From an uncultured Planctomycetaceae bacterium (lineage in GTDB: Bacteria > Planctomycetota > Planctomycetia > Isosphaerales > Isosphaeraceae): a stretch of 64,000 nt of DNA. The stretch is taken from the NCBI GenBank assembly GCA_963833985.1, contig CAWIAD010000002.1, forward strand, positions 6,400,001 to 6,464,000, read 5' to 3'. Made by a program: the position numbers and the translations under genes. Below the pieces are notes generated by a model that had not been told where the DNA came from, made no database searches, and saw only the letters and a list, made by a program, of their open reading frames with translations. Of this stretch, positions 48,861 through 54,205 are shown in pieces (the stretch's first letter is position 1; each line of letters begins with the position of its first letter).

Positions 48861-49313
48861 TCATGGATGCTGCCATTGCCCGGGCGCGGACGAGCCGGCT
48901 CCCGCATCGAGACGACGTATCAAGCTCTTGAATTGCTCCGCGGAGCTTGTCGCCTGAAATGCCAGCCCCGCCTCATACATCCCGCTCGTGGTCGGCTTGA
49001 CCCGCAGGATCTTCATGGCGTACCAGCGCGTCTGCACGGGCTTGACAAGCTGGACCAGGACATCCTCGTGACCTGGCATTTCGTGCAGGGCGATCAACGC
49101 ACCTCCCTGGCTGAGATTCAGGATCCGTGCGTCGATCTTGTGAATCGTCTCGCCAGCCCACCAGCCCATGAAAGCCTCGTTCGGCGCAGTGGGATAGCGA
49201 GGGTGCGCGCGGCGATCCACGCGGGCGATGGGTGAACCATCGCCAGTGACTGATTCCACTTCCGGGGGATCGAGTGAATTCGAGACCTTGAACGAGTGGT
49301 TCGAGATGAACAT
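48861..49313 (-). CDS. PilZ domain protein
   Basis: RRAHPR (RxxxR) and NLSQGG (D/NxSxxG) motifs. Confidence 0.8.
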   Translation of the reverse strand: MFISNHSFKVSNSLDPPEVESVTGDGSPIARVDRRAHPRYPTAPNEAFMGWWAGETIHKIDARILNLSQGGALIALHEMPGHEDVLVQLVKPVQTRWYAMKILRVKPTTSGMYEAGLAFQATSSAEQFKSLIRRLDAGAGSSAPGQWQHP

Positions 49314-50646
49314 GACCTTGCCGCTCCTGAGGTGTCAGTGACGGAAACCGCGGCCAGCCGAAGCCGAGGGACTCCGTAAGCTCCGGCCTCGTGGGTCCGG
49401 CCTCGTGGGACAAGATTCCAGTGCGCCGTGGAAAGGTGTTGGTCTTCAGTGGGTGTAACTCCCACCCGGCAACTGGGTCGCTCCAGCCGGTAGCTATCGG
49501 AGCGGCGGTGGAGGAGACGAAACCGTCGGAGCCTTCGAGACAGATGTGTCGCTTGGCGATGCAGCGAACCGACAGGCCGTAACGCGAGTGAACGTTGAGC
49601 AGGCCTCGAAAAGTCCAATGTGGTCGCCGACCTTGCTGGAATATGGGGAAGGCCGCCGTCGCTGGGGATGAAAGGGAAACGGTTGGAATAGGCCGCCCCA
49701 CGAGCGATCAGAACCCAGCGGGCCACCGGGGTATTGACGACGGCATGTCGGCACACGGAGATCAACACAACACGGGAAACCCCAAGCGGTGAGGGCGCGT
49801 GACCCTCAACCGGACGCCCGCGAGGGACCGGCCGGGCTGCCTGGGGTGGCGGAGAGGCCCGTAGTACCGTCGACGCCGGGTAACTCCGGTCGAGGGAAGG
49901 GGCCTTGGTTCAAGGTCAACGCAACAAGCGGCAGACAGCCGGGAGATTGGCGTGAGTCTATCACCTCCACTGAAGGTCGGGAAGTTGCAGACGGCGTTGC
50001 ACACCAAAGCGAAGAACGCGCCCAACTATCGGTTCTACGTCCTGTACGACAAGATTTATCGACGTGACGTTCTGGGATTCGCCTACGAACGCTGCCGTGC
50101 CAACGGCGGCGCGCCGGGGATCGACGGCCAGAGTTTCGCCGACATCGAGGCGTCCGGGAAGGAACGATGGCTGGACGAACTGGCGGAACAACTTCGTAAG
50201 GAGACGTATCAACCCCAGGCGGTGCGGCGCGTGTACATCCCCAAAGGGGACGGCAAGCAAAGGCCGCTGGGCATTCCTTGCATCAAGGATCGTGTGGTGC
50301 AGATGGCTGCGGTGCTGGTCTTGGAGCCGATCTTCGAGGCCGACCTGGAGCCGGAACAACACGCCTACCGCCCGGAGCGCAGCGCCCTGGACGCCGTCCG
50401 CGAAGTCGAACGGCTGCTCAAGACGGGGCACACCGAGGTGGTGGACGCGGACTTATCTGGATATTTCGATAGCATACCCCATTCCGAGTTAATGAAATCG
50501 GCGTCACGGCGCATCAGCGACGGTCGCGTCCTGCGGCTGATCAAGATGTGGCTGGAAACACCGGTGGAAGAAACCGACGGGAAGGGGCAGCGCCATCGAA
50601 CGACCCGGAATAAAGACCAGGGGATGGGTACACCGCAAGGTGCACC

Positions 50647-52665
50647 GATCACGCCCCCAACAATGTTGCAAAATCGTCCCTGATTCCTGACTCTGTCATT
50701 TCCAGATCGCGGCTTCGACCGAAGTACGGGCACGGATGGCAGCCCCGACTCGATCCCGATCCAAGGCAGGCTGGCGGCCGCGCTCTCGGAGAGGAGGAGT
50801 CGACATGATCACGTCCCCACGGAGGCCCACGTTCAGTCCTCCTGTCACCCGCCACTTCGAGTTCACTCGGCTTCAGGAGCAATTGATCGCGCGTGCATAT
50901 CAGGTCTTGATCCCGGTCGTTTCGCAGCGCCTGGATCGGCCGCGACCCAGCCGCAACCACGCGACTGTGGTCCACACTATCCAGTCCAAGGTCGGGGGGG
51001 TTTGACAAACCATGATCACGGACAATCTCCGCGTGGCGCTCTACGCCCGGGTTTCGGGGGAGCAGCAGGAGAAGGAGGACACGATCGCCAGCCAGCTCGA
51101 GGCGGTCACTCAGCGGATCGCCACTGATGGCTTGGAATGCGAGCCCGAACTGCACTTCGTGGACGACGGCGTCAGCGGTTACATCCTGGCCCGACCGGCA
51201 CTCGAGCGACTTCGGGACCAAGCCGCCGCTGGAGCCATCGACCGCCTCTATATGCTCGATCCGGATCGACTTTCACGCAAGTATGCCTATCAGGTCTTGA
51301 TCCTTGAGGAACTTATCCGGTGCGGTGTCGAGGTCGTCTTCTTGCGCAACCCCGTCGGCCGCAGTCCGGAAGCCGACCTGCTGCTTCAGGTCCAGGGAAT
51401 GATCGCGGAATACGAGCGCGCCAAGATCATGGAGCGTTGCCGCAGGGGCAAGCAACACGCCGCCCGCCGCGGTTCGGTCAACGTCCTCAGCGGCGCACCG
51501 TACGGCTACCGTTACATCGGCAAGCACGAGGGAGGTGGCGAGGCGCGTTATCAGGTCCTCGCTGAAGAGTCCCGGGTCGTGCGGAAGATCTTCGAATGGG
51601 TGGGTCAGGAACGGTGCTCGATCGGCGAGGTGTGCCGACGCCTCCGGCGCGACAGTATCCCGACGCGGACCGGGAAATCGGCCTGGGATCGCGCGACGGT
51701 CTGGTTGATCCTCAAGAACCCTGCCTACAAGGGGACCGCGGCCTTCGGCAAGACGCGCTCAGGTGAGTTCAAACCTCAACGCCTCCGCCCGCAGCGAGGC
51801 CGCCCCGAACACTCCCGGCGACCGGTCTCACGGGTTGATACATCCTCGGAAGATCAAATCTTCATTGAAGTCCCCGGGCTGGTGAGCGAAGACCTCTTCC
51901 TGGCTGTCCAGGCCCAGCTTGAAGAGAACCGGCAACGCCGTCGCGACCGGCCCGGCGGTGGCCGATATCTGCTCCAGGGCCTGGTCGTCTGCAAGCGCTG
52001 CGGCTACGGCTGCTACGGCAAGCCGACGAGCCGAGCCGCGTTCGAGGGCAAGGGTAGGGTCCGCTACGCGTACTACCGTTGCACGGGCTCTGACGCCTAT
52101 CGTTTCGGCGGGCAGCGCCTCTGCTGGAACAAGCAGATCCGCACCGATATCCTTGACGCTGCCGTCTGGGAGGACTTACGAGGTCTCCTGTCCGAGCCGG
52201 AGCGGGTCCGGGAGGAGTACGAGCGGCGGCTGCAGGGTGCCCAGGGCGGGCCGAATCAGGAGGTGGAGCATCTCGGCAAATTGATAAATAATGTGAAAAA
52301 GATGATTTCTCGATTAATCGATGCTTACGGCGACGGGTTGCTCGACAAATCGGAGTTCGAGCCCCGGATCTCGGCGGCAAGGACGCGCCTCTCGAGATTG
52401 GCGGAGGAGCATCGACAACGAATCGGCGAGGCCGCCCAAGAGGCGGAATTGCGACTGGTGATCGGTCAGTTGGAGGAGTTCGCACGTCGCGTCTCGCAAG
52501 GGTTGCAAGAGCCGGACTGGGCCACGCGACGGGAGGTGGTTCGGGCCTTGGTGAAGAAGGTCGAGATCGACGAGCAGGAGGTCCGCATCGTGTATCGGGT
52601 CAGTCCGTCCCCTTTTGAGAAAGGCCCCCAACAACGTAGTTCGCAACATTGTTGGGGGCGTGATC
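50647..52665 (+). mobile_element. 2.0-kb serine-recombinase integrative element with 23-bp perfect inverted ends
   Basis: GATCACGCCCCCAACAATGTTGC (50647-50669) and GCAACATTGTTGGGGGCGTGATC (52643-52665); GATC is present at both junctions. Confidence 0.92.
50805..51005 (+). CDS. Small (66 aa) accessory protein of the recombinase element
   Basis: Strong RBS GAGGAGGAG; 'FEFTRLQEQLIARAYQVLIP'; ends 6 nt before the recombinase ATG. Confidence 0.7.
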   Translation: MITSPRRPTFSPPVTRHFEFTRLQEQLIARAYQVLIPVVSQRLDRPRPSRNHATVVHTIQSKVGGV

Positions 52666-52886
52666 TCACCATTGTTGTCCAACATCTACATGCGACGATT
52701 TGTGAAGGGATGGAAGACTGGTGGACACGAGCGGCGTCTGGTCGCGCGAATCGTCAACTATGCGGACGACTTCGTCATCTGCTGTCGCGGCACGGCCGAA
52801 GAGGCCATGACGGTGATGCGGAAGATGATGTCCAGGCTGAAGTTAACGGTGAACGAGACCAAGACGCGGCTGTGCCACCTGCCTGA
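51012..52886 (+). CDS. Large serine recombinase (resolvase, recombinase, Zn ribbon and coiled-coil domains)
   Basis: ALYARVS (catalytic Ser), DDGVSG..L.RPALERL, DRLSR, APYGY, ILKNPAYKG, YLLQGLVVCKRCG...YYRC. Confidence 0.95.
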   Translation: MITDNLRVALYARVSGEQQEKEDTIASQLEAVTQRIATDGLECEPELHFVDDGVSGYILARPALERLRDQAAAGAIDRLYMLDPDRLSRKYAYQVLILEELIRCGVEVVFLRNPVGRSPEADLLLQVQGMIAEYERAKIMERCRRGKQHAARRGSVNVLSGAPYGYRYIGKHEGGGEARYQVLAEESRVVRKIFEWVGQERCSIGEVCRRLRRDSIPTRTGKSAWDRATVWLILKNPAYKGTAAFGKTRSGEFKPQRLRPQRGRPEHSRRPVSRVDTSSEDQIFIEVPGLVSEDLFLAVQAQLEENRQRRRDRPGGGRYLLQGLVVCKRCGYGCYGKPTSRAAFEGKGRVRYAYYRCTGSDAYRFGGQRLCWNKQIRTDILDAAVWEDLRGLLSEPERVREEYERRLQGAQGGPNQEVEHLGKLINNVKKMISRLIDAYGDGLLDKSEFEPRISAARTRLSRLAEEHRQRIGEAAQEAELRLVIGQLEEFARRVSQGLQEPDWATRREVVRALVKKVEIDEQEVRIVYRVSPSPFEKGPQQRSSQHCWGRDLTIVVQHLHATICEGMEDWWTRAASGRANRQLCGRLRHLLSRHGRRGHDGDAEDDVQAEVNGERDQDAAVPPA

Positions 52887-54205
52887 GGAGACGTTCGACT
52901 TTCTGGGTTATACCCTCGGCCGGAACTACGACCGACGAACGGGCCGATCCTACATAGGGTCACGCCCATCGCGGAAGAAGATCATTCGGCTGTGCAGCGA
53001 GATCAGTGCGATGACGACGCGCCAGACCACTGGACAGGACGTCGAGATGCAGATTGGTCGGATCAATCGCAAGTTACGCGGTTGGTCCAACTATTTTCGC
53101 ATCGGAACGGTGAGCCCAGCCTATCGCCAAGTCAACCACCACGTCCGCTACCGGGTACGTCAGTGGTTGTGTGCGAAGTTCAAGGTGCCGGGTCAGGGGC
53201 TCAGACGCTACCCTGACAGATACCTGCACCAGGAGTTGCATCTTTACCAGCTGCAACGAACCTAGCCGCGATGGTTTCGTGAGCGAACGTGTGAACTCAA
53301 CCGATGAGACAAGCCTTGTCCGAAAGCTGGATGCGGGAAAACCGCCCGTCCAGTTTGATGAGCGGGGTGTGGAAACGAGGCCCAGCCGAGCCATCGACTC
53401 GAGCCCACCGCGCCACACCTCGACTCTACGTCTTGTCACTTAAATAGATAATTGTACTTAAATCTGAAGAGACAAGATGGGAATCTTGTTCCGCGAGAGA
53501 GGCTCAAGAGTCAACGGCCGAGGCTCGGCGGCGTCACGTCAGCCAGTTCCAATGTTGTCATCTTCTTGTTCCGCATACCCGGCCACGACCATCAGCCTCT
53601 GATTGTCCCCCCTTGCCCTTGTGGGACAGGCTCCGATCAAGCGGTTTCCCTCATCATGACACTACTTCAAAACGAGGAGATTGACGAATCGCCGGGGCTC
53701 AACCGCGGGTTGAAAAGATCAACGCGGGGGACTTGTCGGTGTACGCCGCTTCATCGGATTGGGCGCTGAATACGGCCCTGAGGAAGGCCGGGTGCGCGAG
53801 CGGCGTGTCGGTTCGTCAGTGACTTTTTGTCTCGATCCTGGCAAAGGGAGCGCCGGGAAAGGCGAGGTCCAGCAAAGCGTTCGGGTTCGGGAATCGGCTC
53901 GCAGAGTGTGATCGCCTCATGCGGCGTCCCGGCTGCGTCGGCAGGGACGGCGGCCAGGCACCCGGCCGGTTTCTCCGCGAAAACCGGCAGTGACAACGAA
54001 AGCCGCATCATCCCCACAAATGACAAGGTCTTCGCTTGCAAAGCCTGGATTCATTCGGCACGATGGATTGCCAGGCAAATCAGCACTCAAGGGAAAGACG
54101 CCTGCGGCGCTCGCCGTTTGTGTACTTGAGATACGCGTCACGCCCGGTGCAAGAAGGCATTCGCAGCTTCCGCTCGACCGGGATTCCGCTTCGTGGGAGG
54201 GCTTC

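Follow-up and report, generated by a model that had tools for sequence, protein, structure and literature searches.

The organisation of the locus was determined in the window, that is, the whole stretch of 64,000 nucleotides that was analysed. A group II intron, recognised by its GUGYG 5' end, its D5/D6 region and its reverse transcriptase (RT)-maturase open reading frame, carries within the RT gene an element of 2,015 bp. The element consists of a small open reading frame and a large serine recombinase gene and splits the RT at PQGAP/ISPLL (here and below a slash marks the insertion point). Without the element the intron has a length of 1,994 nt. The following features were assigned:

49421..53429, + strand, host group II intron (GTGCG...CTCTAC), with identical ends in 10 complete genome copies
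49447-49587, no strand given, intron 5' part (Rfam RF02003)
49952..50647, + strand, RT/maturase 5' half, 232 codons, ending in PQGAP (RVT_1, TIGR04416), same as in uninterrupted copies
50647..50669, + strand, left arm, 23-bp perfect inverted repeat; element proper from 50650
50648..50649, no strand given, left crossover core AT, the first two bases of the RT Ile codon and alone common to the non-intron junctions
50650..50808, + strand, startless frame of 52 codons (predicted recombinase C-terminal tail), readable only across joined ends
50805..51005, + strand, small conserved protein, 66 aa, F-E-x-x-R...AY..L.P, conserved in relatives
51012..52662, + strand, large serine recombinase, 550 codons in the element, without stop (Pfam Resolvase, Recombinase, Zn_ribbon_recom)
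52643..52665, + strand, right arm, 23-bp perfect inverted repeat; element proper to 52662
52663..52664, + strand, right crossover core AT, within the right arm
52663..53265, + strand, RT/maturase 3' half, ISPLL...YADD...domain X, 200 codons and stop (RVT_1, GIIM)
53322-53404, no strand given, D5/D6 (Rfam RF00029; fold z -3.3)

The length of the element, the 66-aa frame, the recombinase, the perfect inverted repeat and the GATC present at both junctions had been proposed from the sequence alone in the original prediction, and all of them were confirmed. The same holds for the RT, which is open at 432 aa (...PQGAPISPLL...YADD...) once the 2,015 bp are removed. The claimed coding content was right for both genes and missed the 52-aa tail frame at the left end. 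GATC as a 4-bp target duplication was considered and ruled out, since only AT is common to all junctions. The recombinase exhibits the conserved residues S15, R13, D85-R86-R89 and four Zn cysteines. The element is cargo-free, with two genes only, and a scan of its integrated form for sigma-70 promoters gave 0 sites. The host intron itself occupies the loop of a hairpin, GACAmGAT-TCC-n-n-TCkTGTC (window 49402-49420 and 53430-53497), that is repeated in the genome and of which 15 matching sites are empty. A PilZ-domain gene lies directly upstream of the intron (window 48861-49313, - strand).

The recombinase reading frame, stopless within the element, runs into the flank and yields 624 aa in the window copy. 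Across joined element ends, 53 residues would be added and a protein of 603 aa is predicted. The left end is predicted to encode a conserved C-terminal tail of the recombinase with the motif NNVAK..I.R..LRP.YG. Among the matches listed, this frame was open for at least 45 codons at 61 of 68 left ends of the genome set, as against 0 and 9 for the two alternative frames, and at 49 of 66 in a second set, versus 2 and 15. The tail stop overlapped the start of the small frame (ATGA) at 55 of the 131 left ends listed. The synonymous bias in the tail was weak (36/139 versus 19-31 synonymous changes in the other frames). As the junction of the joined ends (attP) would lie inside the recombinase gene, the whole protein would be made only when the ends are joined, and database proteins called from integrated copies would have wrong C-termini in this family.

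The family of the 66-aa protein is large and unnamed (1,247 clusters at 50% identity). The protein matched no Pfam family, its atlas matches lay below 0.9 and were to unnamed clusters, and the predicted model consisted of one helix (pTM 0.24). No likeness between the small protein and the recombinase tail was detected. The protein is a candidate directionality factor or regulator.

Element copies in the source genome

The source genome of the window contains 11 full, near-identical copies of the element. Nine of these are located in introns at the same RT codon, seven in sense orientation and two inverted, each with at most two substitutions relative to the window copy; the other two lie elsewhere. 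The element has recently multiplied. Two intron copies are empty, with an intact RT and a target site exactly as predicted by removing the element, and in a further one the contig ends 15 nt into an element arm. In all, 10 of 12 intron copies are loaded. A diverged intron carries a decayed element copy (81% identical) at the same RT codon, and a second RT, 39% identical and with the motif PQGGVLSPL, is unoccupied. A search of the 10 Mb with the strict target motif matched only the two empty intron sites.

The junctions of the two non-intron copies read C-AT-C / G-AT-G and T-AT-C / G-TT-G. One of these sites corresponds to CCGCAAG-N8-AT-N4-CCTTTG, in register with the RT site, and the copy at the other (C2:5865418) shows the core AT on the left and TT on the right. 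Empty versions of the two sites were sought in the genome and none was found. Since AT alone is common to intron and non-intron junctions, it was assigned as the core, and the proposed crossover at a 2-bp core was borne out by this comparison, with AT as the only candidate. In the copy at C2:5865418-5867434 the recombinase is frameshifted by 1 bp; a tRNA-like fragment, itself repeated twice nearby, is found at a distance of about 75 bp. The other non-intron copy (C1:1741772-1743790) is found among short phage-like ORFs, and the frame beside it is one which we take to be HNH-like. One inverted-loaded intron copy is broken in its 3' part by a transposase-like insertion, presumably ISAs1-like (C2:2147541-2148825).

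The position 16 nt past the core is C in all seven sense-loaded introns and A in the two inverted-loaded and the two empty ones. By simple count this split is expected once in 330; the assembly is rich in near-identical repeats, so that single SNPs could be consensus errors. Other SNPs among the intron copies are mosaic, and therefore retrohoming and gene conversion are not separable. The linked C would fit a copying of intron and element together by either route and is suggestive only. The proposed spread inside the intron is supported to this extent. The two empty, intact introns could supply RT in trans, as had been suggested.

Target sites of related recombinases

Relatives were chosen by recombinase similarity alone (the best 79 of 548 genome matches and the best 80 of 565 metagenome matches), element ends were located by an arm profile and each flank was read separately. 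This flank check had been proposed with the original prediction. An RT-motif flank on one or both sides was present at 50 of the 73 genome loci with a readable flank (best 79 of 548; the rule gave 51, L011 was dropped as a false match and 6 loci had no usable flank) and absent from the remaining 23. The corresponding count was 69 of 75 metagenome loci (best 80 of 565; 5 unusable, L172 doubtful); loci that share a genome or clade do not count as independent. Upstream and downstream RT halves were both present at 57 loci among the matches listed, with the element in sense orientation in 30 and antisense in 27. The loci cover at least six phyla: Planctomycetota, Chloroflexota, Pseudomonadota, Acidobacteriota, a spirochaete and, through plasmids, Actinomycetota. 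The targeted RT genes are only 30-50% identical to one another and are hit at the same codon in dozens of cases, and near-identical elements reside in unrelated RT genes inside single genomes. As the same site is used by nine of the 11 full genome copies and by most relatives, insertion at the RT codon is not due to chance.

Forty-eight plasmid records were matched, of which 14 were examined; five carry the element at the RT codon (L080, L086-L088, L090). Four of these (L086-L088, L090) represent a distant clade with about 40% identity and an RHH gene, which occupies the same RT codon on rhizobial and Rhodococcus plasmids. At the DNA level, relatives were detected in 6 of 40 kin genomes, and the elements of relatives are often decayed or frameshifted.

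Outside RT genes, Pfam identified transposases of the IS256 (L057), IS3 (L032) and IS200 (L035) types. The flanks of L049, L082 and L092 show what we take to be an IS5-like motif. A Pfam search of the L067, L049 and L027 flanks gave no match, so that their labels (IS4-like, IS5-like and Fic-like, respectively) are tentative ones given by motif. In a tree of 89 sequences with a weak backbone and an arbitrary root (L091), the IS256, IS5 and IS3 cases form one branch with a support of 0.84, and RT targeting is present in both deep clades. Close relatives also occupy a sulfatase-like and a Fic-like gene, and L006, L010 and L011 lie beside a REP-like hairpin, not an RT.

In the half-site consensus (92 and 87 distinct half-sites among the matches listed), CCnCAnGG is invariant on the upstream side and CC..T..T.G.AA on the downstream side. 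Both target sides have GG at -6/-5, as do the element arms, whose consensus over the relatives is ACGCCCCCAACAATGTTGCAAA. The DNA signature of the RT motif-4 codons is CCnCAnGGnGGnnTn-NN-nTCnCCnnTnnTnGCnAA; it is near-symmetric, which explains both orientations. The arms mimic this target DNA, and therefore the outward reading of either arm gives GGV (at 173 of 259 ends among the matches listed). ATG in the GGV frame was present at only 45 of the 128 right ends listed. A reading of the right-arm GGVI (GGVISPLL) as a restart or rescue of the RT has to be abandoned in favour of DNA mimicry.

Comparison of the junctions, with cores read in 100 two-ended loci among the matches listed, revealed a crossover at a 2-bp core and no target duplication. 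The cores were AT in 55, CT in 31, GT in 16 and GC in 6 of 114 cases, and the two junction cores were unlike in 20 of 57 RT loci (both among the matches listed). L033 (GC/AT) shares its RT with L018 and L020 (AT/AT). Together with the core mismatches this makes a donor-carried core likely, and mismatches are likely tolerated. Empty copies that would reveal the native core were sought for L071, L086 and L040, and none was found. Part of the mismatches may come from swapped flanks instead of mismatch tolerance; at 13 of the loci listed the two RT halves are both upstream or both downstream ones. In L199/L211 (G159:C63), two inverted copies lie 13 kb apart with reciprocally swapped RT halves, resulting in chimeric RT loci. 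This looks like a reciprocal inversion, with misassembly possible for short-read contigs.

At L007, L009 and L055 one and the same flank is present on either side of the element as long inverted copies (76 to >500 bp), which represent either inversion or an assembly artefact. A second, unrelated large-serine-recombinase element (681-742 aa) was observed in RT genes at a YFD/xIxH motif (L003:1009-3472, L038:728-3482, L011:1054-3459, L006:5789-8193). In L003 and L038 both recombinase elements are found in one RT gene.

Proposed mode of propagation and its rivals

We regard it as highly probable that this is a minimal, IS-sized element which inserts at one exact RT codon and which likely moves as a DNA circle by means of its recombinase. 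Judged from the sequence comparisons, it very likely parasitises group II intron RT genes as a specialist and so lives on another genetic parasite. The predicted specialisation is correct in so far as PQGxx/xSP codons are targeted; exclusivity was overstated, as two of 11 copies lie outside introns and sister branches reside in transposase genes. The recombinase would recognise the near-symmetric DNA signature conserved in the motif-4 codons and cut around a 2-bp core, the first two bases of an I/L/V/A codon. The cut RT site would then be joined to the palindromic end-to-end junction (attP) of the excised circle, with a core likely brought from the donor site and mismatches likely tolerated. 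The full 603-aa recombinase would be made from the circle only, integrated copies giving a flank-dependent tail, and this C-terminus swap together with the small protein would likely set integration versus excision. In the intron the element may have a landing site that is safe and multiplies by itself, thereby supplying new empty targets. With RT provided in trans by an intact copy, a loaded intron may be copied together with its element.

A joined-end circle of the element is inferred by comparison with phage WO (see below). Of the searches that had been proposed, the one for empty sites succeeded with the two empty introns and the one for a circle junction yielded no joined ends in the sequence data searched: the exact pattern gave 0 hits in metagenome contigs and 0 in viral contigs, and contigs of four soil runs with relatives showed no circle joint among the joints listed, results by which absence is not established.

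The two copies outside introns, one of them at a site that keeps the motif in register, could also be produced by a transposon with a loose motif, for which RT genes dominate as harmless and abundant sites without any evolved specialisation. The close relatives at the REP-like hairpin and in the sulfatase-like and Fic-like genes would fit such relaxed targeting as well. We consider it improbable, because one and the same codon is hit in dozens of divergent RT genes and the arms mimic RT codons. Purifying selection would not impose one codon within the RT gene, RT targeting is present in both deep clades of the tree, and the strict motif found only the two empty intron sites in 10 Mb.

The predicted switching of the RT is sound in that excision would restore the gene precisely. 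A regulatory switch was an overstatement, for which no evidence was found. A domesticated switch, in which the host or the intron retains the element to silence the RT and frees it on a signal, would profit from the same precision and from the 10 loaded copies among 12, which would lower RT dosage. It is nevertheless very improbable: multiplication in both orientations and also outside introns is a selfish pattern, relatives are often decayed and patchily distributed (6 of 40 kin genomes), and no host regulator was seen. The linked SNP in the seven sense-loaded copies indicates that co-transfer may account for some of the local spread. A single old insertion borne along passively by one intron lineage is scarcely conceivable beyond that in view of the two orientations, and as a full account it is ruled out by the non-intron copies with their clean ends and by the near-identical elements in unrelated RT genes of single genomes.

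Extending the reading of a specialised, circle-forming parasite, the element may represent a large two-gene family of hyperparasites, new to the literature, which radiated onto conserved catalytic codons of mobile elements (intron RTs; IS256, IS3, IS5 and IS200 transposases). In such a family the att site inside the recombinase gene would set direction through a C-terminus that differs between the circular and the integrated form. Core mismatches would be tolerated, loaded introns would carry the element as RNA, copy-copy recombination would shuffle RT halves, and phage WO would use the same module. This entire scheme is tentative, and we hold it to be possible and somewhat short of probable. 

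As a natural suppressor of group II introns that also hitch-hikes on them, the element would be widespread and would account for many of the split RT 'pseudogenes' found in annotations. With att inside the gene, serine recombinase direction could be controlled in a new and testable way. Perfect palindromic attP sites, known short targets and clade-wise target switches would form a set for learning recombinase specificity rules, the family would be a source of integration tools, and the link to phage WO provides an experimentally confirmed attP as a starting point.

Comparison with known systems

With its Resolvase, Recombinase and zinc-ribbon domains and the catalytic Ser motif the element's protein belongs to the large serine recombinases, which likewise move Tn5397 (TndX) and Tn4451/Tn4453 (TnpX). 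Transposons of the Tn4451/Tn5397 type have a circular intermediate. Unlike the element they are larger, use a GA core and carry resistance, mobilisation or conjugation genes, and to our knowledge no perfect terminal repeats or split gene are known for Tn5397 and Tn4451/Tn4453. The N-terminal domain of TnpX (2mhc) is only a distant sequence match to the element recombinase (E 3e-8). Apparently, the element acts like a circle-former of the TnpX/TndX type that lacks their GA core and cargo. According to PMC4430133, TndX has a preference for a central dinucleotide and for a conserved target that encodes protein (Fic domain).

A canonical phage serine integrase has the same core in attL and attR and a fixed orientation; here both orientations occur and the cores differ in 20 of 57 loci. 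IS607-family elements encode a short TnpA with an N-terminal DNA-binding domain, and TnpB. The element recombinase scored 25.9 bits against NF033518 (cut-off 110), and the element contains no TnpB ORF. The NCBIfam equivalog scores for SCCmec Ccr and XisF were also far below the cut-offs (CcrB 103 versus 900; XisF 101 versus 375).

Durrant et al. (PMC10083194) have described site-specific large serine recombinases which disrupt a conserved gene, a single site in one gene family being shared by diverse enzymes; among the targets no reverse transcriptase, maturase or RVT is mentioned in the available text and 8 supplementary files. The element differs from the systems in that part of the work in that its target is another mobile element and that it is cargo-free. 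Helper-embedded PICIs resemble it in an integrase clade which repeatedly hits genes of another mobile element and in the lack of a replacement sequence. In contrast, they are phage satellites in prophage late genes, and the word 'serine' is absent from the accessible text (PMC10111431). No published description of the element family was found in the literature searched, and a term search of PMC12884075 gave zero matches.

The closest phage relatives are the recombinases of Wolbachia phage WO (40-47% identical), and that of WOVitA1 (KX522565.1) is 40% identical to the element's. The WOVitA1 particle genome contains the same arms joined around AT (L219:2775-2822), and its recombinase gene reads through the joined arms as LQHCTGRHDVYNNVTKN. 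The likeness extends to the arm motif TTTGCAACATTGT...ACAATGTT.CAAA around AT, a homologous tail after attP and a small ORF upstream of the recombinase; tail and upstream ORF match the family profiles, with 0 of 500 shuffles as high. The available part of PMC5062602 describes a WOVitA1 attP amplicon that was Sanger-sequenced, and its forward primer corresponds to L219:2742-2762, 36 nt before the core. The joined form is thus real in a relative. The WO recombinase differs in that a 65-kb prophage is moved into a non-coding repeat, with no RT targeting, and the accessible parts of PMC5062602 and PMC9203015 contain no remark on attP lying inside the recombinase gene. The structural and eukaryotic-association modules of phage WO are absent from the two-gene element of 2,015 bp. 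The element and phage WO share one recombinase module composed of small ORF, attP-in-gene and arm motif.
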